Assembly: GCF_000014265.1 (NCBI RefSeq) | Contig: NC_008312.1 | Coordinates: 720,001 to 752,000, forward strand | DNA: 32,000 nt | Direction of reading: 5' to 3' | From: Trichodesmium erythraeum IMS101 | Lineage (GTDB): Bacteria > Cyanobacteriota > Cyanobacteriia > Cyanobacteriales > Microcoleaceae | Part shown: one piece after another, positions 8,615 through 29,348 of the stretch | Layout of the letters: each line of letters begins with the position of its first letter | Numbering within the stretch: the stretch's first letter is position 1 | The notes under the pieces: model-generated | What the model saw: the letters and a program-made list of their open reading frames with translations, nothing else | What the model was told of the DNA's origin: nothing | Databases searched by the model: none | Translations under genes and position numbers: made by a program

Positions 8615-9601
8615 AAAGTTAGGGTTTTAATTTGCTGGGAGTTTTACTTTTCTCAGACTTATTTTGTTTGTTTATTTCTGACTCTGGATATGGCAAAGAA
8701 TGGGTTGAAAATTGTTGAGGTTAAGTTTAAGTATGAAGGCTATAACTAGACTGTTTTTTTCTGATATTTTTTGTCTCTGAGGGTTTTTGGTCTGGTGATG
8801 ATCTTGCTGACAATGTTCAGGGTCAACACCATGACTCTGCTTTTCCTGACTATACAAATGACTATGGTTTTGACTCTAATATTTCACTACCTAGCTATGT
8901 GGGTGATATTGACTGTCTTTTTTATTTCTTAAATTGAATTTAGAGGACGACGACTACAGGGCTGATGGTTTCAGCGACTATGGTTGGGTAAATAATGATT
9001 TTGACTCTGGTTCTTTTTCTGGTCATTTTTTGATATTACAAGGGCAAGTTATGAAACGGATGTCTATTTAGATATTGAGAATAATTGAGTTCAGGTTCGC
9101 GATAGTCCTGTTCTCTGCTTCAGGGAGGGGTTAGCTGCTGTTGTAGGTCGTTGCTATTACTATCCCCAGAAAATACTTTTAGATAATTCTTGGGAAAATG
9201 GTGGTGATGGTTACTGATCATAGTATCGCCTCTGCTTTGAATATTTCTTTTTGAGTAACTGCTGTTAAGTCTTCCGGAGTCGGTTGTAGAAAATCTCAAG
9301 TATTGGCAGAATTTTCTGAAAAAGCAGGGTCTAAAATGACTATTACCCTCTTGGTGGTCGGTCTTGTAGCAGCGATCGCCTGTTTATTTTGGGAGTTGTC
9401 GGCTTTTCTTGAGCCCTCCAGTTTTCTTCTAAAGTTTCAGTCAGACTTTGCCTAGGCATCACCATTCGTTTTTCTCACTCACTTTTCCCCATGTTCTTTT
9501 TGATCAAATATTCAGGCTTTAACTGCCATAGCTGTGAACCCCTCTTTCTATCTAGATGTTTTGTATAATTTGCTACATTGTCTCTGAGTCTAAAAAAATT
9601 T

Positions 9602-9618
9602 TTCCCGCAGAGCGGGAA
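9602..9618 (-). terminator. Hairpin after copy 1 of the kinase array: candidate intrinsic terminator, or alternatively a DGR target-associated hairpin
   Basis: The minus strand reads TTCCCGC-TCT-GCGGGAA (7-bp perfect stem, 3-nt loop) followed by AAATTTTTTTAG. It lies 38 nt past the stop codon. Confidence 0.45.
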
Positions 9619-9655
9619 GGAACCACAAAGGGCAAGAGGGCAAAAGGGCAAAGGG

Positions 9656-11518
9656 CTATTCAAAAGTCCTGGGGGGGAAACTCACAAGACGAAAACCAAC
9701 AGAGTAGTTGTCCGCCTCGCCCGAGAGATAGCTGTCGCGGTCCGCAGAGCGACACCTCCTAGGAAAGTAGTCCCAGGAGCCGCCACGACAGACTCTGCTA
9801 CTACTATCACCTCCAGTTTCCCAGGCACTGCCATCAGTAGGTGCTCCATTATAGTTTTCATGCCCAACATCCTGACACCACTCGTACACATTCCCATGCA
9901 TATCGTACAAACCAAATGCATTCGGTGGAAAAATTCCCACATCTGTTGTTTCTTTTCGATATTTTCCTTTCGGAGCATCAGCATAAGTATAGTTGCCATT
10001 GTAGTTAACTAACTCAGAGGTTATAGTTTCTCCAAAATAAAATGGTGTTGTTGTTCGGGCTCGACAAGCATATTCCCATTGGCTCTCACTGGGTAGACTA
10101 TATTGTTTTCCTGTTATTCGTGAGAGTTTCCGACAAAATTCTGTCGCATCATTCCAACTTACTTTTTCCACAGGACGGTTTGCACCTTTAAACCTAGCAG
10201 GGTTATTTCCCATAACTGCTTCCCACTGTGCTTGAGTAACTGCATACTTTCCCATCAAAAATTCTGGCACATCTACATAATGTTGGGGACCTTCATCATT
10301 CTTTCTTTCTGCTTCCGTCTCTGGAGACCCCATCAAAAACCTACCTCCGGGAATTTTTACCATTTCTAGAGAAACTCCATTACCAATATTTTCTGTTATT
10401 ACTTCTGCTTCACCTGGAGCGCGGCTTATTATTTCTCCTCTGCGGTTAACTTTCACCGTAGTAAATAGCTGAACGGGAATTTTTGGTGGTGGTGGAGGAG
10501 TTGGTGATGGTGTCGGCTGGGGTGTTGAAATATTTTCCCTAGGAGTTTCTTTTCTCAGGTCAGAACTAGAAATATTTTCTGGAGATGGTTTCAATTTTTC
10601 ATTTAATAATGCTCCCACAAACCCACTTCCGGCTAAACCCACTAATATCAATATTTTTCTTCTCGTTTTATTACCTAACCTTAGTTTTCCTGAAGTTTGA
10701 ACATTTAATGCTTCCATAGCTTCCATCGCATTTTGATAACGTTCTGAAAAATACTCCCGCACCATCTTATCTAATACATTTGCCAGGTCGTTACTTACCT
10801 CCGCTTTATTTCGCCAAATTATATTTCCTGTTTTTGGGTCTGTTGGTAAACTTTGTGGGTCTTTTCCCGTCAGTGCTTTTATTCCCACCATCCCCACTGC
10901 ATATATATCGCTACTTAACTTCGGCTTACCGTTACTTTGTTCACTCGGGATATAACCAGGAGTTCCCACTGCAACTGTTAAAGTTGTTGCACCTTGTTGG
11001 GTAATAGTCAGTGTGCTTATTTCCTTTACCGCCCCAAAGTCTATCAATATCACTTTATTGTCTGAGCCGCGACGCATCAAATTTTGGGGTTTTATATCTC
11101 GATGAATTATATTATTTTCATGAGCCACCACTAATGCTTCTAATATTCCTTTCAATAAAGCGATCGTATCCGACTCACTTAATTTTTTCCCCGGCGTCAG
11201 TTCTCGACTTATGTCTTGCCCTTCTATATATTCTTGTACTAAGTAAAATTCTTTTTCTTCTTGAAAATGGGCCAATAATCTAGGTATTTGGTCTGAGTCA
11301 CTACCTAACTTGTATAAAGTCTCCGCTTCTCTTTCAAATAATTTTCTAGCAATATTTAGAACTATAGGGTCTGAGCTTTTCGGAGATAAATGTTTAACCA
11401 CACATTTAGGTTTTCCTGGTAAATCTGAATCTTGGGCCAAATAGGTATCCCCAAAACCTCCACTACCCAAGGGTTTGATGATTTTATAATGGTTTCTCAA
11501 AGTGGTTCCAGACTGCAT
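9656..11518 (-). CDS. Receptor-type Ser/Thr protein kinase fused to an FGE-sulfatase (C-type-lectin fold) domain, array copy 1, 620 aa
   Basis: Kinase motifs GSGGFG, VVKHL, HRDIKPQN, DFG, GTPGYIPSEQ. One TM helix (ILILVGLAGSGFVGALL) and a Pro-rich linker (PQPTPSPTPPPPPK). FGE motifs: FLMGS, YAVTQAQW, PVE.VSW, LPSESQWEYACRA, YDMHGNV.E.C.D, RGGSW, CRSA.R, GFRLV. Confidence 0.92.
   Translation of the reverse strand: MQSGTTLRNHYKIIKPLGSGGFGDTYLAQDSDLPGKPKCVVKHLSPKSSDPIVLNIARKLFEREAETLYKLGSDSDQIPRLLAHFQEEKEFYLVQEYIEGQDISRELTPGKKLSESDTIALLKGILEALVVAHENNIIHRDIKPQNLMRRGSDNKVILIDFGAVKEISTLTITQQGATTLTVAVGTPGYIPSEQSNGKPKLSSDIYAVGMVGIKALTGKDPQSLPTDPKTGNIIWRNKAEVSNDLANVLDKMVREYFSERYQNAMEAMEALNVQTSGKLRLGNKTRRKILILVGLAGSGFVGALLNEKLKPSPENISSSDLRKETPRENISTPQPTPSPTPPPPPKIPVQLFTTVKVNRRGEIISRAPGEAEVITENIGNGVSLEMVKIPGGRFLMGSPETEAERKNDEGPQHYVDVPEFLMGKYAVTQAQWEAVMGNNPARFKGANRPVEKVSWNDATEFCRKLSRITGKQYSLPSESQWEYACRARTTTPFYFGETITSELVNYNGNYTYADAPKGKYRKETTDVGIFPPNAFGLYDMHGNVYEWCQDVGHENYNGAPTDGSAWETGGDSSSRVCRGGSWDYFPRRCRSADRDSYLSGEADNYSVGFRLVSFPPRTFE
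9698..9808 (-). other. DGR-like variable region (VR) of copy 1
   Basis: 111-bp patch encoding D-SSSRVCRGGSW-DYF-P-RR-CRSA-D-R-DSYLSGEADNYSV. It is bounded by sequence invariant in all four copies: ACTGGAGGT on the 5' side and GGTTTTCGTCTTGTGAGTTTCC on the 3' side. The block CGTGGCGGCTCCTGG inside the patch is also invariant. See the first finding for the codon-position pattern. Confidence 0.7.
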
Positions 11519-11556
11519 AGTATTTTTAATCTATAATGAACGGGCAAAAGCTGAAA

Positions 11557-11584
11557 ATTATAGCCTTGTGGGATAACTTATCAA
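11557..11584 (-). promoter_or_regulatory. Candidate sigma70-type promoter of array copy 1; an identical copy at 13664-13691 serves copy 2
   Basis: The minus strand reads TTGATA-N16-TATAAT about 40 nt upstream of the ATG. Copies 3 and 4 keep the TATAAT (15781-15786, 17920-17925) but lack the 21 bp that carry the -35 element. Confidence 0.35.
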
Positions 11585-11759
11585 AATATAGTTACACAAG
11601 ACATCCTTTTATTTTATAGCTCTTATCCTAACTCGGTGAACTACAACACCCATTTTTATAATGAAATGCACAAAGCAGGTGAAACGTCATAATTTTTTAA
11701 CTGCCCCCGGAAAAATTTCCCAATATTCGGAAAAAAAAAGCCAGGGTAAAAGTCAGTGG

Positions 11760-13625
11760 TTATGTGGTTGAAGTCCTGGGGGGGAAACTCACAAGACGAA
11801 AACCAATATAGAAGTTGTCCGCCTCGACCGAGTTATAGAGGTTGCGGAGCGCAGAGCGACACCACCAAGGATAGTTGAGCCAGGAGCCGCCACGATAGAC
11901 TCTTCTACTACTATCACCTCCAGTTTCCCAGGCACTGCCATCAGTAGGTGCTCCATTATAGTTTTCATGCCAAACATCCTGACAAAACTCCCACACATTC
12001 CCATGCATATCGTACAAACCAAATGCATTCGGTGGAAAAATTCCCACATCTGTTGTTTCTTTTCGATATTTTCCTTTCGGAGCATCAGCATAAGTATAGT
12101 TGCCATCGTAGTTAACTAACTCAGGCGTTATAGTTTCTCCAAAATAAAATGGTGTTGTTGTTCGGGCTCGACAAGCATATTCCCATTGGCTCTCACTTGG
12201 TAGACTATATTGTTTTCCTGTTATTTGTGAGAGTTTCCGACAAAATTCTGTCGCATCACTCCAACTTACCTGTTCCACAGGACGGTTTGCACCTTGAAAC
12301 CTAGCAGGGTTATTTCCCATAACTGCTTTCCACTGTGCTTGAGTAACTGCATACTTTCCCATCAAAAATTCTGGCACATCTACATAATGTTGCGGGCTTT
12401 CATCATCATCTCTTTCTGCTTCTGTCTCTGGAGACCCCATCAAAAACCTACCTCCGGGAATTTTTACCATTTCTAGAGAAACTCCATTACCAATATTTTC
12501 TGTTATTACTTCTGCTTCACCTGGAGCGCGGCTTATTATTTCTCCTCTGCGGTTAACTTTCACCGTAGTAAATAGCTGAACGGGAATTTTTGGTGGTGGT
12601 GGAGGAGTTGGTGATGGTGTCGGCTGGGGTGTTGAAATATTTTCCCTAGGAGTTTCTTTTCTCAGGTCAGAACTAGAAATATTTTCTGGAGATGGTTTCA
12701 ATTTTTCATTTAATAATGCTCCCACAAACCCACTTCCGGCTAAACCCACTAATATCAATATTTTTCTTCTCGTTTTATTACCTAACCTTAGTTTTCCTGA
12801 AGTTTGAATATTTAACGCTTCCATAGTTTCCATCGCATTTTTATAACGTTCTGAAAAATGGTCGCGCACCATCCTATCTAATACATTTGCCAGGTCGTTA
12901 CTTACCTCCGCTTCATTTCGCCAAATTATATTTCCTGTATTTGGGTCTGTTGGTAAATTTTGTGGGTCTTTTCCCGTCAGTGCTTTTATTCCCACCATCC
13001 CCACTGCATATATATCGCTACTTAACTTCGGCTTACCGTTACTTTGTTCACTCGGGATATAACCAGGAGTTCCCACTGCAACTGTTAAAGTTGTTGCACC
13101 TTGTGGGGCAATAGTCAGTATACTTATTTCCTTTACCGCCCCAAAGTCTATCAATATCACTTTATTGTCTGAGCCGCGACGCATCAAATTTTGGGGTTTT
13201 ATATCTCGATGAATTATATTATTTTCATGAGCCACCACTAATGCTTCTAATATTCCTTTCAATAAAGCGATCGTATCCGACTCACTTAATTTTTTCCCCG
13301 GCGTCAGTTCTCGACTTATGTCTTGCCCTTCTATATATTCTTGTACTAAGTAAAATTCTTTTTCTTCTTGAAAATGGGCCAATAATCTAGGTATTTGGTC
13401 TGAGTCACTACCTAACTTGTATAAAGTCTCCGCTTCTCTTTCAAATAATTTTCTAGCAATATTTAGAACTATAGGGTCTGAGCTTTTCGGAGATAAATGT
13501 TTAACCACACATTTAGGTTTTCCTGGTAAATCTGAATCTTGGGCCAAATAGGTATCCCCAAAACCTCCACTACCCAAGGGTTTGATGATTTTATAATGGT
13601 TTCTCAAAGTGGTTCCAGACTGCAT
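11760..13625 (-). CDS. Ser/Thr kinase-TM-FGE-sulfatase domain protein, array copy 2, 621 aa
   Basis: Same architecture as copy 1. The 5' part and the upstream region are identical to copy 1. Confidence 0.92.
   Translation of the reverse strand: MQSGTTLRNHYKIIKPLGSGGFGDTYLAQDSDLPGKPKCVVKHLSPKSSDPIVLNIARKLFEREAETLYKLGSDSDQIPRLLAHFQEEKEFYLVQEYIEGQDISRELTPGKKLSESDTIALLKGILEALVVAHENNIIHRDIKPQNLMRRGSDNKVILIDFGAVKEISILTIAPQGATTLTVAVGTPGYIPSEQSNGKPKLSSDIYAVGMVGIKALTGKDPQNLPTDPNTGNIIWRNEAEVSNDLANVLDRMVRDHFSERYKNAMETMEALNIQTSGKLRLGNKTRRKILILVGLAGSGFVGALLNEKLKPSPENISSSDLRKETPRENISTPQPTPSPTPPPPPKIPVQLFTTVKVNRRGEIISRAPGEAEVITENIGNGVSLEMVKIPGGRFLMGSPETEAERDDDESPQHYVDVPEFLMGKYAVTQAQWKAVMGNNPARFQGANRPVEQVSWSDATEFCRKLSQITGKQYSLPSESQWEYACRARTTTPFYFGETITPELVNYDGNYTYADAPKGKYRKETTDVGIFPPNAFGLYDMHGNVWEFCQDVWHENYNGAPTDGSAWETGGDSSRRVYRGGSWLNYPWWCRSALRNLYNSVEADNFYIGFRLVSFPPRTSTT
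11805..11915 (-). other. DGR-like variable region (VR) of copy 2
   Basis: Homologous 111-bp patch encoding ...GGSW-LNY-P-WW-CRSA-L-R-NLYNSVEADNFYI. About 19 differences from copy 1 by hand count, against none in the 759-bp identical stretch elsewhere in these two units. Confidence 0.7.
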
Positions 13626-13866
13626 AGTATTTTTAATCTATAATGAACGGGCAAAAGCTGAAAATTATAGCCTTGTGGGATAACTTATCAAAATATAGTT
13701 ACACAAGACATCCTTTTATTTTATAGCTCTTATCCTAACTCGGTGAACTACAACACCCATTTTTATAATGAAATGCACAAAGCAGGTGAAACGTCATAAT
13801 TTTTTAACTGCCCCCGGAAAAATTTCCCAATATTCGGAAAAAAAAAGCCAGGGTAAAAGTCAGTGG

Positions 13867-15744
13867 TTATGTGGTTGAAGTTCTGGGGGGGAAACTCACA
13901 AGACGAAAACCAATAGCGTTGAGGTTGGGCACGACAGAGCCAAAGCCGATGCGGTCAGCGGAGCGACACCTCCCGGGATAGATGATCCAGGAGCCGCCAC
14001 GACAGACTCTTCTACTACTATTACCTCCAGTTTCCCAAGCACTGCCATCAGTAGGTGCTCCATTATAGTTATCATGCCAAACATCCTGACAAAACTCCCA
14101 CACATTCCCATGCATATCGTACAAACCAAATGCATTCGGTGAAAAATTTCCCACATCTGTTGTTTCTTGTCGATATTTTCCTCTCGGAGCATCAGCATAA
14201 GCACCGTTGCCATTGTAGTTAACTAACTCAGAGGTTATAGTTTCTCCAAAATAAAATGGTGTTGTTGCTCCGGCTCGACAAGCATATTCCCATTGACTCT
14301 CACTTGGTAGACTATATTGTTTTCCTGTTATTTGTGAGAGTTTCCGACAAAATTCTGTCGCATCACTCCAACTTACCTGTTCCACAGGACGGTTTGCACC
14401 TTGAAACCTAGCAGGGTTATTTCCCATAACTGCTTTCCACTGTGCTTGAGTAACTGCATATTTTCCCATCAAAAATTCTGGCACATCTACATCATGTTGC
14501 GGGCTTTCATCATTCTTTCTTTCTGCTTCTGTCTCTGGAGACCCCATCAAAAACCTACCTCCGGGAATTTTTACCATTTCTAGAGAAACTCTATCACCAA
14601 TATTTTCTGTTATTACTTCTGCTTGAGCTGGAGTGCGGCTTATTATTTCTCCTCTGCGGTTAACTTTCACCGTAGTAAATATCTGAACAGAAATTTTTGG
14701 TAGTGGTGGAATAGAAATATTTTCCCTAGAGGTTCCTGTTATCAGTTCAGAACCAGAAAAATTTTCTGGAGATGGCTTCAATTTTTCATTTAAAAATGCT
14801 CCCACAAAACCACTTCCGGCTAAACCCACTAATGTCAATATTTGTCTTCTCGTTTTATTACCTAACCTTAGTTTTCCTGAAGTTTGAATATTTAATGCTT
14901 CCATAGCTTCCCCTGCAGAAGTTTGAACATTTAACGCTTCCATAGCTTCCATCGCATTTTTATAACGTTCTGAAAAATGGTCGCGCACCATCTTATCTAA
15001 TACATTTGCCAGGCCGTTACTTACCTCCGCTTCATTTCGCCAAATTATATTTCCTGTGTTTGGGTCTGTTGGTAAATTTTGTGGGTCTTTTCCCGTCAGT
15101 GCTTTTATTCCCACCATCCCCACTGCATATATATCGCTACTTAACTTCGGCTTACCGTTACTTTGTTCACTCGGGATATAACCAGGAGTTCCCACTGCAA
15201 CTGTTAAAGTTGTTGCACCTTGTGGGGCAATAGTCAGTGTACTTATTTCCTTTACCGCCCCAAAGTCTATCAATATCACTTTATTGTCTGAGCCGCGACG
15301 CACCAAATTTTGGGGTTTTATATCTCGATGAATTATATTATTTTCATGAGTCACCACTAACGCTTCTAATATTCCTTTCAGTAAAGCGATCGTATCCGAC
15401 TCACTTAATTTTTTCCCCGGCGCCAGTTCTTGACTTATGTTTTGCCCTTCTATATATTCTTGTACCAAATAAAATTCTTTTTCTTCTTGAAAATGGGCCA
15501 ATAATCTAGGTATTTGGTCTGAGTCAGTACCTAACCTGTATAAAGCCTCCGCCTCTCTTTCAAATAATTTTCTAGCAATACTTAGAACCATAGGGTCTGA
15601 GCTTTTCGGAGATAAATGTTTAACCACACATTTAGGTTTTCCTGGTAAATCTGAGTCTTGGGCCAAATAGGTATCCCCAAAACCTCCACTACCCAAAGGT
15701 TTGATGATTTTATAACGGTTTCTCAGGGTTGTTCCAGACAGCAT
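13867..15744 (-). CDS. Ser/Thr kinase-TM-FGE-sulfatase domain protein, array copy 3, 625 aa
   Basis: Same architecture. The Pro-rich linker is shortened (IPPLPK). There is a 13-aa in-frame duplication before the TM helix. Confidence 0.9.
   Translation of the reverse strand: MLSGTTLRNRYKIIKPLGSGGFGDTYLAQDSDLPGKPKCVVKHLSPKSSDPMVLSIARKLFEREAEALYRLGTDSDQIPRLLAHFQEEKEFYLVQEYIEGQNISQELAPGKKLSESDTIALLKGILEALVVTHENNIIHRDIKPQNLVRRGSDNKVILIDFGAVKEISTLTIAPQGATTLTVAVGTPGYIPSEQSNGKPKLSSDIYAVGMVGIKALTGKDPQNLPTDPNTGNIIWRNEAEVSNGLANVLDKMVRDHFSERYKNAMEAMEALNVQTSAGEAMEALNIQTSGKLRLGNKTRRQILTLVGLAGSGFVGAFLNEKLKPSPENFSGSELITGTSRENISIPPLPKISVQIFTTVKVNRRGEIISRTPAQAEVITENIGDRVSLEMVKIPGGRFLMGSPETEAERKNDESPQHDVDVPEFLMGKYAVTQAQWKAVMGNNPARFQGANRPVEQVSWSDATEFCRKLSQITGKQYSLPSESQWEYACRAGATTPFYFGETITSELVNYNGNGAYADAPRGKYRQETTDVGNFSPNAFGLYDMHGNVWEFCQDVWHDNYNGAPTDGSAWETGGNSSRRVCRGGSWIIYPGRCRSADRIGFGSVVPNLNAIGFRLVSFPPRTSTT
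13912..14022 (-). other. DGR-like variable region (VR) of copy 3
   Basis: Homologous 111-bp patch encoding ...GGSW-IIY-P-GR-CRSA-D-R-IGFGSVVPNLNAI. Confidence 0.7.
14879..14956 (-). repeat. In-frame 39-bp tandem duplication inside copy 3
   Basis: 14879-14917 and 14918-14956 are near-identical (GAAGTTTGAA.ATTTAA.GCTTCCATAGCTTCC...). The protein reads AMEALNVQTSAGE-AMEALNIQTSGKL. Confidence 0.9.
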
Positions 15745-15969
15745 AGTACTTTAATCTATAATAAACGGCCAAAGCTGAAAATTATAGCCTTGTGTTACAC
15801 AAGACGTCCTTTTATTTTATAGCTCTTATCCTGACTCGGCCAACTACAACACCCATTTTTATAATGAAATGCACAAAGCAGGTGAAACGTCATAATTTTT
15901 AACTCCCCCCGGAGAAATTTCCCAATATTCGGAAAAAAAAGCCAGGGTAAAAGTCAGTGCTTATGTAGT

Positions 15970-17883
15970 TTAATTTCTGGGGAGGAAACTCACAAGACGA
16001 AAACCAAGACCGTTGTTGAACGCCTCGATGGAGACATAGTAGCCGCGGAGCGAAGAGCGACACCACCTAGGAAAGAAGTCCCAGGAGCCGCCACGAAGGA
16101 CACTGAAACCACTGTTACCTCCAGTTTCCCAAGCAGTGCCATCAGTAGGTGCTCCATTATAGTTTTCATGCCAAACATCCTGACACCACTCGTACACATT
16201 CCCATGCATATCGTACAAACCAAATGCATTCGGTGGAAAAATTCCCACATCTGTTGTTTCTTTTCGATATTTTCCTTTCGGAGCATCAGCATAAGTACCG
16301 TTGCCATTATGGTTAACTAACTCAGACGTTATAGTTTCTCCAAAATAAAACGGTGTTGTTGTTCGGGCTCGACAAGCATATTCCCATTGGCTCTCACTGG
16401 GTAGACTATATTGTTTTCCTGTTATTCGTGAGAGTTTCCGACAAAATTCTGTCGCATCATTCCAACTTACACTTTCCACAGGACGGTTTGCACCTTTAAA
16501 CCTAGCAGGGTTATTTCCCATAACTGCTTCCCACTGTGCTTGAGTAACTGCATATTTTCCCATCAAAAATTCTGGCACATCTACATCATGTTGCGGGCTT
16601 TCATCACTAGATCTTTCTGCTTCCGTCTCTGGAGACCCCATCAAAAACCTACCTCCGGGAATTTTTACCATTTCTAGAGAAACTCCATTACCAATATTTT
16701 CTGTTATTACTTCTGCTTGATATTCAGTGCGACTTATTATTTCTCCTCTGCGGTTAACTTTCACCGTAGTAAATATCTGAACAGAAATTTTTGGTGGTGC
16801 TGGAGAAGTTGGTGATGCTGTTGCCTGGGGAGTTGAAATATTTTCCCTAGAGGTTTCTGTTCTCAGTTCAGAACTAGAAATATTTTCTGGAGATGGTTTC
16901 AATTTTTCATTTAATAACGCTCCCACAAAACTAGAAATATTTTCTGGAGATGGTTTCAATTTTTCATTTAATAATGCTCCCACAAACGCACTTCCGGCTA
17001 AACCTGCCAATATCAATATTTTTCTTCTCGTTTTATTACCTAACCTTAGTTTTCCTGAAGTTTGAATATTTAACGCTTCCATAGTTTCCATCGCATTTTT
17101 ATAACGTTCTGAAAAATGGTCGCGCACCATCCTATCTAATACATTTGCCAGGTCGTTACTTACCTCCGCTTCATTTCGCCAAATTATATTTCCTGTGTTT
17201 GGGTCTGTTGGTAAACTTTGTGGGTCTTTTCCCGTCAGTGCTTTTATTCCCACCATCCCCACTGCATATATATCGCTACTTAACTTCGGCTTACCGTTAC
17301 TTTGTTCACTCGGGATATAACCAGGAGTTCCCACTGCAACTGTTAAAGTTGTTGCACCTTGTGGGGCAATAGTCAGTATACTTATTTCCTTTACCGCCCC
17401 AAAGTCTATCAATATCACTTTATTGTCTGAGCCGCGACGCATCAAATTTTGGGGTTTTATATCTCGATGAATTATATTATTTTCATGAGCCACCACTAAC
17501 GCTTCTAATATTCCTTTCAGTAAAGCGATCGTATCCGACTCACTTAATTTTTTCCCCGGCGTCAGTTCTCGACTTATATCCTGCCCTTCTATATATTCTT
17601 GTACCAAGTAAAATTCTTTTTCTTCTTGAAAATGAGCCAATAACTTGGGTACTTGGTCTGAGTCAGTACCTAACCTGTATAAAGCCTCCGCCTCTCTTTC
17701 AAATAATTTTCTAGCAATACTTAGAACCATAGGGTCTGAGCTTTTCGGAGATAAATGTTTAACCACACATTTAGGTTTTCCTGGTAAATCTGAATCTTGG
17801 GCCAAATAGGTATCCCCAAAACCTCCACTACCCAAAGGTTTGATGATTTTATAACGGTTTCTCAGGGTTGTTCCAGACTGCAT
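15970..17883 (-). CDS. Ser/Thr kinase-TM-FGE-sulfatase domain protein, array copy 4, 637 aa
   Basis: Same architecture. A 19-aa in-frame duplication spans the TM/juxtamembrane region. An earlier stop gives the C-terminus LVSFLPRN. Confidence 0.9.
   Translation of the reverse strand: MQSGTTLRNRYKIIKPLGSGGFGDTYLAQDSDLPGKPKCVVKHLSPKSSDPMVLSIARKLFEREAEALYRLGTDSDQVPKLLAHFQEEKEFYLVQEYIEGQDISRELTPGKKLSESDTIALLKGILEALVVAHENNIIHRDIKPQNLMRRGSDNKVILIDFGAVKEISILTIAPQGATTLTVAVGTPGYIPSEQSNGKPKLSSDIYAVGMVGIKALTGKDPQSLPTDPNTGNIIWRNEAEVSNDLANVLDRMVRDHFSERYKNAMETMEALNIQTSGKLRLGNKTRRKILILAGLAGSAFVGALLNEKLKPSPENISSFVGALLNEKLKPSPENISSSELRTETSRENISTPQATASPTSPAPPKISVQIFTTVKVNRRGEIISRTEYQAEVITENIGNGVSLEMVKIPGGRFLMGSPETEAERSSDESPQHDVDVPEFLMGKYAVTQAQWEAVMGNNPARFKGANRPVESVSWNDATEFCRKLSRITGKQYSLPSESQWEYACRARTTTPFYFGETITSELVNHNGNGTYADAPKGKYRKETTDVGIFPPNAFGLYDMHGNVYEWCQDVWHENYNGAPTDGTAWETGGNSGFSVLRGGSWDFFPRWCRSSLRGYYVSIEAFNNGLGFRLVSFLPRN
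16006..16116 (-). other. DGR-like variable region (VR) of copy 4
   Basis: Homologous 111-bp patch encoding ...GGSW-DFF-P-RW-CRSS-L-R-GYYVSIEAFNNGL. It retains AAC AAC at two of the variable codons. Confidence 0.65.
16873..16986 (-). repeat. In-frame 57-bp tandem duplication inside copy 4
   Basis: 16873-16929 and 16930-16986 differ at one base. The protein reads FVGALLNEKLKPSPENISS twice. Confidence 0.95.
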
Positions 17884-18641: not shown

Positions 18642-19301
18642 TTAGCTTTTAATTTTAGTAATATTATTATCAATATTTCTCACAACTGTATTAACTTCTT
18701 CTTGTAATCTTTGTAATAGTGCTTTAGACTTTTTCGATTTAGAATTGTAAAGCCTAGCCGAAAAAGCCGTGATAACTTCTAGTAAATCTTGAGCTAGTTC
18801 TTCTTCAACAAAACGTAATTGCTCACCTTTATTAATAACAACTATCTCGATCCCCTGAAGTTCACAAACAGAAAATATCAACTCAGCACCAAATCTTAAC
18901 AACCTATCTTTATGAGTTAATACTAATCGTTTAGTTTGCTTTCTTAAGATTTTTTCTAATAATTTTTGTAACCCACTTTTGTGATAGTTCATACCAGAGC
19001 CTAAATCTTGAATCATTTCAAATTTCCACCCTTGACTAACACAATAAGCCTCTAGTATTCCCTGTTGCCTTTCTAAATCTAATTTTAGCTCGTGGCTACT
19101 GATCCTCGCATAACAAATAGTAGGACTATCTGCACTTCCTAAATTGATAAGCTTAGAAGAATCATAGAACCTAGTACCACCCTGACTTTTTCGGTCTGGT
19201 ATCAATTCTCCAGACACCTCCCATTTTCGGAGTGTATCAACAGACACCCCTAATAACTCTGCAGCTGCACCTATTTTAATAAATCGACTAGTCATGATCA
19301 T
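18642..19301 (-). CDS. tnpA: IS607-family transposase (MerR-type HTH plus serine recombinase/resolvase catalytic domain), 219 aa
   Basis: N-terminal HTH (IGAAAELLGVSVDTLRKWEVSGEL), the resolvase motif YARISS...DLERQ, and LVLTHKDRLLRFG. Confidence 0.8.
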   Translation of the reverse strand: MIMTSRFIKIGAAAELLGVSVDTLRKWEVSGELIPDRKSQGGTRFYDSSKLINLGSADSPTICYARISSHELKLDLERQQGILEAYCVSQGWKFEMIQDLGSGMNYHKSGLQKLLEKILRKQTKRLVLTHKDRLLRFGAELIFSVCELQGIEIVVINKGEQLRFVEEELAQDLLEVITAFSARLYNSKSKKSKALLQRLQEEVNTVVRNIDNNITKIKS

Positions 19302-24352: not shown

Positions 24353-24655
24353 CTAGGATACAGGCGATATGCGAAGGACGAGATGCCCCACCCCCCTATA
24401 TTTTATATTTCTGTTTGCCTCTTCATCGCGACACATAACAATGTCACAGTATAGACAGGAATAGCTTCTCCCTAATAAGTCTTTAGGGACTATTTCTCGA
24501 CAATTTGAGCAATCTTGACTTATAGCATTTGGAGTTACAGTTATTGTTTTTTGTCCAGCATTTTCAGCTTTGACAGTCAAAATAGATAGGAACTGTCCCC
24601 ATCCTGCATCATTAATTAGAGCTAGCTGAATAAACATAGAATCCTGATGAAACAT
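24353..24655 (-). pseudogene. TnpB (IS605 OrfB family) C-terminal fragment, 100-aa ORF
   Basis: [62 protein letters not shown] matches the TnpB C-terminal region (KAE..G..V..V.P..TSQ.CS.CG ... C..C ... DRD.NAA.NI). Catalytic and zinc residues are degraded and no N-terminal part is present. Confidence 0.6.
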
Positions 24656-27435: not shown

Positions 27436-27479
27436 GTTAAACATTCGCCAGTTAAGCTAACCTACCCGACTCGTCTTCA

Positions 27480-27513
27480 GAACCGGACGTGAGACTTTCA
27501 CCTCATCCGGCTC
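27480..27513 (-). ncRNA. Group II intron ribozyme domain V
   Basis: The minus strand reads GAGCCGGATGAGGTGAAAGTCTCACGTCCGGTTC. It has the AGC catalytic triad, a GAAA tetraloop, a 2-nt AC bulge and fully paired stems. Confidence 0.85.
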
Positions 27514-27701
27514 CTCTCTTAAACGTCCTTTTGCATAGGTACATCCTTGTCTCAGAGTTAACATATCGTTTACCCATAAATACTCATCAGGTAAGTCCTG
27601 TAATTTTAGGTTTTGGATATGTTTTATTGTCTAAGGCAGTTTTAGTATCGTGACAATGTCGGTGCAACAGTTGCTTATTTTTAAGTGTGTTGTCACCACC
27701 T

Positions 27702-29348
27702 TTAGACCTTGTTTTTATATGATCTACTTCCCATTTGGTCGGTTGACCTAAAGGTTAATCCGCAGAATGCGCATTTATTCTTTTGCCGTTTTAACAGCGT
27801 TGTTACTTCTTTCCTTATGCCTGGATGCTTTCCAATTCTACTACTCCAATAAGTCCAATCGCCGTCATAAGGAGATTTATTGCCTTTCACTTTAACGTGC
27901 CTTATTATGGCCACGTCGTTAAGTATCCAGTTTCTGGTTATTTTGCAGTGAGGGAAATACTTTTTCTTTACCCATTTGGCTAACTTGTTTGGGTGCCTCC
28001 TCATTGCCCATTGACCTATTCTTTTCCACAAAAGCATATCCAGCTTGCTGAATGTACTTTTACTAACTATGGCAGAGAAGTAATTGGCCCATCCCTTTAT
28101 TACCGGATTAAGTTTAGTTATTAAAGCTTTTGTGGAGGCATTTTTGTATTTATCACATATATCCGCCAGTTTCCGATAATGAGTTTTTATACTCTTGGAT
28201 GATGGTTTTATGATTGTTTTAAATCCTTTATTGGCTGTCTTAACCTCATATTGCCTAATATAGAATCCCAAAAAGTCAAATCCGGGTTTATTTCCTTCAT
28301 ATTCTTCTAAGGTGTGAGCAATTTAATTTTAGTTTTTTCTGGTTTTAGTTCTAATCCTACCTGGTTTAACCATTCCTGTATTACGGTTTTTGCTTGAATT
28401 ACTACTTTGATGTCTTTGTGTAGGATGACAAAATCATCAGCATAGCGTATTATAGCGTATTAAGGATAGTGCCTTTTTATTGCCGTGTTTTTTTCCCGGT
28501 AGGGTTTCGGCGTATTTTTCTAGGCACTTCTCCATACCGTGTAAGGCGATGTTTGCTCTTTAAGGACTAATAACCCCTCCTTGTGGTGTACCTTCCACAG
28601 TTTTTGAGAATTGCTTGTTGTCGAACACTCCAGATTTTAACCATTGTTTGATTAATCGTCTGTAAGGTGTTTGACCCATTTTTCTCAACAAAGCATCATG
28701 ATTAATTCGGTCAAAACATTTGGATATGTCAGCATCTAATACATATTTTGGTTTCTTATTAATGCTGAGATAGATTGCAATAGCATCATGTGTTGACCGC
28801 CCTGGTCTAAAGCTATAACTGTTAAATTCAAAGTGTGCCTCCCACTCTGGTGACCTACCCAACTTAACCAAGGCTTGTAGCGCCCTATCATACATAGTAG
28901 GTATGCCTAATGGGCGTTTTTCATTCCTCCCTGGTTTTGGTATCCAGACTCTGCGGGTTGGGCTTGCTTTTAATCGGCGTCTTTTTAATAAATTTACCAG
29001 GTTTAATCTTTGCATTGGGGGTAGATTCTTTATACCATCTATACCCGCAGTTTTTTTACCCTGGTTATCCTGAGTCACCCGTCTAACAGCTAGCAACAAG
29101 GCGTAGTAACTTTTGGTCAGAAGTTTTTGGTATTTACGCATCTTGCGGATTTCGCCACGGCTGGATGCTCTGTAAATTAATTTTTGCAACTTAAACACAT
29201 ACTTTTCTACCTTTTTCCAGTTAATGTCTTTCCATTTAAGATTAGGATTAACACTACATGGATCTGGTATATCGTTTGTATCCCATGCCACGCTTAAAAA
29301 TGGTTTAGGATTTTCTAAACTTCTTTTTAGGGTTTTAGCTTTATTCAT
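27702..29348 (-). pseudogene. Group II intron reverse transcriptase/maturase/HNH endonuclease (IEP), inactivated
   Basis: N-terminal RT domains 0-4 (WKKVEKYVFKLQKLIYRA, RRVWIPKPGRNEKRPLGIPTMYDRALQALV, FRPGRSTHDAI, LDADISKCFDRINH, GTPQGGVISP). An in-frame TAA at 28557-28559 follows. A 10-bp tandem duplication (AATACGCTAT twice, about 28442-28461) lies at the YADD motif. There is a further frameshift near 28320. The maturase X domain (LNPVIKGWANYF) and the HNH domain (KNKCAFCG) are in ORF 27702-28271. Confidence 0.85.

Follow-up and report, generated by a model that had tools for sequence, protein, structure and literature searches.

The DNA analysed herein, a window of 32,000 nt, corresponds to positions 720001-752000 of the Trichodesmium erythraeum IMS101 chromosome and harbours four tandem genes, termed g1-g4, which were assigned to Tery_0460-0463 by exact-sequence look-up, their proteins being identical to ABG49918-49921.

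g1, Tery_0460 (ABG49918.1): 9656..11518, reverse strand, 620 aa; defined by ORF, Pfam scan and exact-sequence look-up
g2, Tery_0461 (ABG49919.1): 11760..13625, reverse strand, 621 aa; g1-like architecture by alignment
g3, Tery_0462 (ABG49920.1): 13867..15744, reverse strand, 625 aa; g1-like architecture by alignment; apparently a decayed target
g4, Tery_0463 (ABG49921.1): 15970..17883, reverse strand, 637 aa; g1-like architecture by alignment; apparently a decayed target

From N- to C-terminus, g1 comprises a Ser/Thr kinase, a hydrophobic TM-like segment, a Pro-rich linker and an FGE/CLec domain that ends in a variable region (VR). The Pfam scan, which covered g1 alone among the four copies, returned Pkinase (1.3e-32) and FGE-sulfatase (4.8e-52, residues 385-612 of 620), with the domains of g2-g4 assigned by alignment to g1; both families are likewise listed in the gene tables for the GBRTRLIN201 orthologues. 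The Pkinase domain contains the motifs HRDIKPQN and DFG, and the hydrophobic stretch KILILVGLAGSGFVGALL was taken, by eye only, as a TM helix. Tery_0460 is a known type II STK (PMC7517822, Fig. S1). Homology (E=1.8e-22) links the C-terminal domain of g1 to TvpA (2y3c), a solved variable protein of a DGR-type retroelement, in agreement with the fold that an earlier note on this DNA had assigned to it. This architecture suggests a receptor kinase, in which the specificity of the sensor would be what a DGR diversifies.

Hypervariability is located in a patch of 111 bp in 4/4 copies, which lies between ACTGGAGGT and the 22-mer GGTTTTCGTCTTGTGAGTTTCC; both flanks are invariant, and the 22-mer occurs exactly 4 times against an expectation of 0. 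The patches and the VR cores within them, the latter placed by alignment to the template TR2 described below, are as follows.

g1: patch 9698-9808, reverse strand; VR core 9698..9772, reverse strand, 25 codons matching TR2 AAC AAC TAT ... AAT ATT
g2: patch 11805-11915, reverse strand; VR core 11805..11879, reverse strand
g3: patch 13912-14022, reverse strand; VR core (putative fossil VR) 13912..13986, reverse strand
g4: patch 16006-16116, reverse strand; VR core (putative fossil VR) 16006..16080, reverse strand

When the four copies are aligned, variable columns fall at codon positions 1, 2 and 3 in the numbers 20, 16 and 8, reproducing exactly the patch, flanks and counts given in the earlier note. 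The 8 third-position columns are either non-adenine sites or lie in the 5′ 36 nt, beyond the core. Adenine is found in at least one copy at 31 of the 44 variable columns, such that the description of 'almost every' column as containing A was overstated. The mutagenised core, moreover, is confined to the 3′ 75 nt (25 codons) of the patch; in its 5′ 36 nt ordinary paralog divergence is seen, chiefly in g4. For g1 and g2, the approximately 19 patch differences claimed were indeed counted as 19, but the two genes also differ at 45 sites outside the patch and their longest identical run is 503 nt, rather than there being no difference over 759 bp elsewhere.

The origin of this pattern becomes apparent upon comparison with TR2, the sequence of which was taken from PMC8867640 Table S1, with 113 nt compared (27 TR adenines and 86 non-adenine sites). 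The TR2 core, NNYPRRCRSANRNNYNSDEADNNNI, has 17 adenine-containing codons with 26 adenines, none of them at a third position, and the template predicted by hand in the earlier note is identical to published TR2 at 84/87 positions (97%). All 13 mismatches between g1 and TR2 are at TR adenines, with 0 at the 86 non-adenine sites, and the same is true of all 12 mismatches in g2. In g3 there are 16 adenine-site and 7 non-adenine mismatches, most of the latter being synonymous third-position changes upon reading of the aligned codons, and g4 has 17 and 5, respectively, across the 113 nt, with 4 of the 5 in the core and 1 in the 3′ element. Mismatches are thus strongly enriched at adenines, as the earlier note had anticipated (Fisher p 5e-10 to 1e-7). 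Amongst the four copies, 26/27 TR adenines vary compared with 10/86 non-adenines (p=2e-16), and within the core the figure is 26/26. A cognate TR has been published, the mismatches fall on its adenines, this variation is kept to codon positions 1 and 2, and a C-type-lectin/FGE-fold domain carries the VR at its C-terminus, all of which are features of a DGR variable region. The comparison confirms the central claim of the earlier note, namely four tandem receptor-kinase genes with hypervariable C-termini of DGR-type adenine pattern.

In positively selected tandem paralogs, changes can also be overrepresented at codon positions 1 and 2, and ordinary substitutions are present in g3 and g4; it might thus be proposed that the patch reflects ordinary paralog divergence, with diversifying selection on the ligand-binding face and no retroelement. 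Such an explanation has almost no chance of being correct, and the restriction to adenines in effect refutes it: within the 113 nt, 17 sites distinguish g1 from g2, every one at an A of an independently published template and 0/86 elsewhere, with all of the core adenines varying, a base specificity beyond what selection alone would produce. The same scaffold and variable columns are, in addition, found in Trichodesmium MAG_R02 and MAG_R03, where the FGE domains are only ~80% identical but the non-variable VR columns are nearly identical. In public assemblies, this scaffold carries 53 different VR peptides, albeit with locus assignment that is unreliable in short-read assemblies; codons with adenines have an entropy of 1-3 bits, and those without adenines one near 0.

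At the end of each VR is a conserved, IMH-like 3′ element of 29 nt, GGTTTTCGTCTTGTGAGTTTCCCCCCCAG, common to TR2, as is found in DGR variable regions.

g1: 9669..9697, reverse strand; no difference from the corresponding 3′ portion of TR2
g2: 11776-11804, reverse strand; intact
g3: 13883-13911, reverse strand; intact, with a G-to-A change at the next base (CAGAACTT)
g4: 15977-16005, reverse strand; C-to-T change in the C-run, and two more changes in the following bases (AGAAATT)

VR-TR2 homology stops directly after GGTTTTCGTCTTGTGAGTTTCCCCCCCAG in g1, and the G-to-A change of g3 is inside a longer conserved stretch described in PMC4143802. Because their mismatches are at adenines only and their 3′ element is intact, g1 and g2 look like targets that are still homing-competent. 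The other two copies, g3 and g4, look like decayed former targets that have lost this competence, and would since then have undergone ordinary, apparently mostly synonymous, mutation, so that their specificities would be frozen. This division into live g1/g2 and frozen g3/g4 matches the hypervariability reported from metagenome read recruitment in PMC8867640, which is yes for Tery_0460 and Tery_0461, and no for Tery_0462 and Tery_0463. The array would hold live and fossil DGR targets side by side.

With regard to the source of the diversity, sensitive blastn of the window with the VRs and the predicted TR returned only the four VRs, and no DGR RT is present in the window, both in accordance with the earlier note. 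The sole RT in the window is, as also noted there, a group II intron IEP in split ORFs.

28560-29348: group II intron IEP, RVT_N/RVT_1 part (Pfam)
27702-28271: group II intron IEP, GIIM part (Pfam)
27451-27516: intron domain V/VI

TR scans of three sequence collections similarly found no TR. In the published descriptions, TR2 is at ~2.63 Mb and adjoins the RT Tery_1728/1729, ~1.9 Mb from the array at 0.73 Mb (PMC4143802, PMC8867640). The DGR2 RT lies at 2632880-2633791, is annotated as Tery_1728/1729 and has a stop at codon 39 in IMS101 (PMC4143802, PMC8867640), whilst an intact copy is present on a wild Hawaiian scaffold (PMC4143802). It had been supposed that the machinery was either remote or extinct, and both hold, the RT being pseudogenised (PMC4143802). 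The papers cited here on the locus make no mention of an Avd for DGR2.

The explanation we favour, and hold with high confidence, is that Tery_0460-0463 are remote (trans) targets of T. erythraeum DGR2. In the mechanism described in the literature, the 265-nt TR2 RNA is reverse-transcribed with misincorporation opposite adenines, and in any gene with the matching 3′ homing sequence, GGTTTTCGTCTTGTGAGTTTCCCCCCCAG, the cDNA takes the place of the final 25 variable codons. Rewriting thereby reaches as many as 26 bases, at the first and second positions of 17 codons, on the ligand-binding face of the FGE/CLec domain. Since the RT carries a premature stop, all four copies are presumably static at present in IMS101. 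DGR RTs are in general considered specific for the TR RNA of their own element, as established in the BPP-1 system, and it is accordingly very improbable that diversification is ongoing in IMS101 by use of TR2 RNA in trans by the intact RT of DGR1 (Tery_1035). TR1 and TR2 are, furthermore, dissimilar in sequence (PMC8867640), although IMS101 does encode another DGR RT, for which there is a protein accession (ABG50407.1; PMC7517822, PMC8867640), and TR2 RNA is highly expressed (PMC4143802).

The designation of these genes as DGR2 targets is not new, as their C-termini are already published as remote DGR targets; the finding is nonetheless real and was correctly read. The system has been on record since 2014, and tables in the literature name these four genes (Pfreundt et al. 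2014, PMC4143802; Vallota-Eastman et al. 2020, PMC7517822; Paul et al. 2022, PMC8867640). The first of these reports the 265-nt TR RNA and 12 VR genes, along with the stop codon in the RT and the counts of 26 adenines and 17 codons; Table S3 of the second lists the four accessions as remote variable proteins; and Tables S1/S2 of the third give the TR2 sequence and enter the four genes (729656-737883) by locus tag among the remote targets of TR2. Coordinates in the latter equal window coordinates + 720000, and g1 is entered as RVP_729656. The earlier note missed this prior publication, as well as the non-equivalence of the copies, g3 and g4 being apparently decayed. Its reasoning from raw sequence was sound, and the details sharpened here are which copies appear decayed and how VR comparisons based on MAGs are to be read. 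New in the present analysis are the mismatch counts for each copy, split into adenine and non-adenine sites, and a caveat on chimeric VRs in short-read assemblies.

This caveat stems from comparisons with other strains. Between GBRTRLIN201 and IMS101, g3 and g4 show no difference in their VRs, but 24 and 18 differences, respectively, elsewhere in the genes. Its g1 orthologue, by comparison, bears a VR identical to that of another IMS101 paralog, Tery_2829, and on a LEEM17-1 scaffold a Tery_2829-like gene has the exact g2 VR DNA followed by a g1-type 3′ flank. Both cases, together with the homology for recombination offered by the conserved flanks, could indicate that, besides DGR mutagenesis, whole VR cassettes are shuffled among paralogous kinase genes by gene conversion, giving part of the differences between copies and strains. 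We consider this unlikely, as both derive from short-read assemblies of multi-copy repeats, in which chimeric joins of paralogs are to be expected; the LEEM17-1 protein is a mosaic outside of the VR too, and the four VRs within the finished IMS101 window are all distinct. The GBRTRLIN201 g1 change is thus unreliable, and may be an assembly chimera or gene conversion, which illustrates how VR comparisons based on MAGs can mislead. Likewise improbable, though conceivable, is the proposal that the array records a 'diversify, then freeze' route, with DGR rewriting whilst the homing element is intact, followed by lock-in through element mutation (g3 and g4) and purifying selection, and possible exchange of VR cassettes by gene conversion. 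A diversify-then-fix idea for cyanobacterial paralogs is already discussed in PMC7517822, and, were the route correct, novelty would be confined to the gene-conversion component and the dissection of individual copies.

Viewed alongside known systems, Tery_0460-0463 are the same object as the remote variable proteins of IMS101 DGR2, with nothing different in kind. The DGR of Bordetella phage BPP-1 (Brt, TR, Mtd VR and IMH) similarly has adenine-specific TR-to-VR transfer, places its VR at the very C-terminal end of a protein with a C-type-lectin fold, and carries a GC-run within a conserved 3′ element at the limit of VR/TR homology. It acts, however, in cis on one adjacent target, a phage tail fibre, whereas in Trichodesmium the targets, 12-18 in number, are scattered across a chromosome of 7.75 Mb and are cellular receptor-type kinases. 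In this cyanobacterium, a nitrogen fixer of global importance, the sensor domains of at least a dozen signalling proteins are rewritten by a single retroelement. Treponema denticola TvpA has the FGE-type CLec fold to which the g1 domain is homologous, with its VR at the C-terminal end of the fold, but is a lipoprotein and lacks a kinase domain. The trans-acting DGR targets of Thiohalocapsa PB-PSB1 (PMC10907252) belong to another phylum and are mostly NACHT/STAND-type conflict proteins. The kinase-CLec DGR proteins of other cyanobacteria, namely Nostoc, Anabaena, Microcystis and Arthrospira (PMC7517822), share the two domains and the C-terminal VR; these are mostly DGR-proximal, whereas Trichodesmium has a remote tandem array of four, two of them apparently decayed. 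Canonical cassettes of FGE gene, Avd and RT were also found on cyanobacterial plasmids.

The kinase array consists of four paralogous open reading frames, arranged head-to-tail on the minus strand:

9656-11518, minus strand: g1, ABG49918.1, Tery_0460 (locus tag from the tables of PMC8867640)
11760-13625, minus strand: g2, ABG49919.1, Tery_0461 (exact-sequence look-up)
13867-15744, minus strand: g3, ABG49920.1, Tery_0462 (exact-sequence look-up)
15970-17883, minus strand: g4, ABG49921.1, Tery_0463 (exact-sequence look-up)

The g1 product, which matches a T. erythraeum IMS101 protein at 100 % identity, has a Pkinase domain in its N-terminal part (Pfam, E=1.3e-32) and an FGE-sulfatase domain in its C-terminal part (Pfam, E=4.8e-52, residues 385-612 of 620). 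Between them lie a hydrophobic segment and a linker rich in Pro, which may together form a membrane anchor. The C-terminal domain is homologous to PvdO and FGE, and also to the DGR variable protein TvpA (2y3c, a solved structure; E=1.8e-22), as expected from the earlier note, which had assigned it a known DGR variable-protein fold. Alignment of the four paralogs gives 87-93 % protein identity, with scrambled residues in the last ~30 positions ahead of an invariant GFRLVSF. Internal tandem duplications of 13 residues in g3 (~14900-15000) and 19 residues in g4 (~16930-17000), covered by protein-alignment columns 266-278 and 313-331, lie before or within the hydrophobic segment.

The hypervariable patch described by hand in the earlier note is real and far above chance. 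It is bounded by ACTGGAGGT and GGTTTTCGTCTTGTGAGTTTCC, measures 111 bp in all four copies and had been placed correctly, with the 3′ flank GGTTTTCGTCTTGTGAGTTTCC occurring exactly four times in the window against zero expected. Variable columns at codon positions 1, 2 and 3 number 20, 16 and 8, identical to the hand count, and within the patch 19 sites separate g1 from g2, where about 19 had been reported. Other statements required correction: g1 and g2, said to be without difference over 759 bp elsewhere, have a longest identical run of 503 nt, and adenine, said to be present in almost every variable column, occurs in only 31 of 44. In addition, only the 3′ 75 nt of the patch are DGR-written; its 5′ 36 nt show ordinary divergence, mostly in g4.

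The published template repeat of DGR2 (TR2), located ~1.9 Mb away, reads in coding sense GCGGCTCCTGG AAC AAC TAT CCT AGG AGG TGT CGC TCT GCG AAC CGC AAC AAC TAT AAC TCG GAC GAG GCG GAC AAC AAC AAT ATT GGTTTTCGTCTTGTGAGTTTCCCCCCCAG CACTC (PMC8867640), and the template predicted in the earlier note matches it at 84 of 87 bases. Using this published sequence, each variable region (VR) was compared with TR2 over 113 nt of homology. The expectation that mismatches would fall at template adenines is borne out completely by g1 (13 adenine, 0 non-adenine) and g2 (12 and 0), whilst g3 (16 and 7) and g4 (17 and 5) are enriched but carry extra, non-adenine substitutions (Fisher p 5e-10 to 1e-7 for adenine enrichment). 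All 26 core TR2 adenines vary among the four genes, the single adenine of the 3′ conserved stretch is invariant, and g1 and g2 differ from each other over the 113 nt at 17 adenine sites and at zero others. The extra substitutions of g3 appear, from codons aligned by eye, to be mostly synonymous third-position changes; changes in or beside the IMH-like 3′ element give CAGAACTT in g3 and CCTCCCCAGAAATT in g4.

This system is already known, as far as these four locus tags. Pfreundt et al. 2014 (PMC4143802) described a 265-nt TR RNA downstream of a DGR RT, Tery_1728/1729, that a stop codon divides in two. That study aligned 12 VR genes to the TR, counting 17 codons and 26 adenines, and recorded five VRs with accumulated non-adenine mutations and lesions in the 35-bp 3′ conserved stretch, unchanged VRs upon culture resequencing, and an intact RT and TR on a wild Hawaiian scaffold. 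ABG49918-49921 were subsequently listed among remote variable proteins (Vallota-Eastman et al. 2020, PMC7517822), and Tery_0460-0463 were named as remote targets of TR2, with Table S2 gene coordinates (729656-737883) equal to window positions plus 720000 (Paul et al. 2022, PMC8867640), which places the window at 720001-752000 of the IMS101 chromosome. Tara Oceans read recruitment found Tery_0460 and Tery_0461 hypervariable, and Tery_0462 and Tery_0463 not (PMC8867640). The substitutions and 3′-element changes of g3 and g4 fit both the published decayed targets and this pattern of hypervariability.

The DGR interpretation of the earlier note is correct, and the remote or extinct machinery it called for is DGR2, with an RT that is broken in IMS101 according to these papers; the TR2 sequence, RT pseudogene and TR transcript are all known here from the literature (PMC4143802, PMC8867640). 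We consider it very probable that DGR2 acts in trans, retrohoming into the VRs of all four genes. Under this scheme g1 and g2 would be competent targets and g3 and g4 former targets that are now frozen, and the broken RT would leave all four of them static in IMS101.

Within the window, a sensitive blastn search with the VRs and the predicted template returned only the four VRs, as the search by eye had, and the sole RT is the IEP of a group II intron, divided between two ORFs:

27451-29348, minus strand: group II intron remnant (domain V/VI and split IEP)
27451-27516, minus strand: intron domain V/VI (Rfam RF00029 and RF04357)
27702-28271, minus strand: IEP part, maturase domain
28560-29348, minus strand: IEP part, RVT_N and partial RVT_1

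Beyond it, a genome-contig scan with an N-masked VR pattern yielded no TR and only three VR loci, from Trichodesmium MAG_R02 and MAG_R03. No match was obtained in metagenome contigs, scanned with a 27-mer specific to the TR and with the conserved 22-mer of the 3′ side, or in two scans of viral contigs. The loci of two further looked-up proteins held no RT, nor did the end of MAG_R03 contig 275, where an unrelated ORF follows an 885-aa FGE protein. The peptide encoded by TR2, used as a protein query, recovered only VR-bearing gene fragments and no TR-overlapping ORF. DGR cassettes were found on cyanobacterial plasmids.

The MAG_R02 and MAG_R03 VRs reside in FGE domains only ~80 % identical to those of the window; their non-variable columns are almost perfectly kept and the same columns vary. 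The retrieved proteins include 53 distinct VR peptides on a common scaffold, whose adenine codons have an entropy of 1-3 bits against ~0 for the non-adenine codons. The exception is VR codon 20 (9713-9715 in g1), which is Ala in 27 and Thr in 18 of these 53 public peptides. This codon is GCG, a non-adenine codon, in IMS101 TR2 and ACG in the MAG_R02 and MAG_R03 VRs, suggesting ACG, and hence an extra adenine, at this position of the template in other Trichodesmium species.

In the GBRTRLIN201 assembly, with flanks 99.9 % identical to the window, the array (L010:5743-11863) contains three kinase genes versus four in IMS101, which could be true copy-number variation or an assembly collapse of g1 and g2. 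Its g3 and g4 orthologues have the same VRs as IMS101, whilst its g1 orthologue (L010:10001-11863) differs from IMS101 g1 at 18 VR sites. Fresh DGR rewriting was considered for these 18 differences and dropped, as this VR is identical to that of a different paralog, Tery_2829. Likewise, scaffold_73 of LEEM17-1 (L017:7392-9173) harbours a Tery_2829-like gene with g2 VR DNA and a g1-type 3′ flank. Both cases come from short-read assemblies and reflect either chimeric joining of paralogs during assembly or gene conversion, and on either reading VRs matching other paralogs cannot count as evidence of fresh mutagenesis.

Predicted folds of the sequence past the VRs were not significant overall (z -1.3 to +1.7); the one feature was a short GC hairpin and T-run after g1, probably a terminator. 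The g1 3′ flank (9570-9668) is as in other Trichodesmium species, reading TGAATAGCCCTTTGCC... and then a 7-bp GC hairpin and T-run ~50 nt past the stop, whilst the g2-g4 flanks (11677-11775, 13784-13882, 15878-15976) are common to these three, unlike that of g1, and begin directly after CCCCCCCAGGACTT. Mobile-element genes also lie nearby:

18642-19301, minus strand: IS607-type serine recombinase (MerR HTH and resolvase), adjoining the kinase array
24353-24655, minus strand: TnpB C-terminal fragment, separated from the recombinase by gltB

The MAG_R02 locus opens with a gene fragment that bears a VR, and a similar recombinase (L001:1098-1673) lies just downstream of it.
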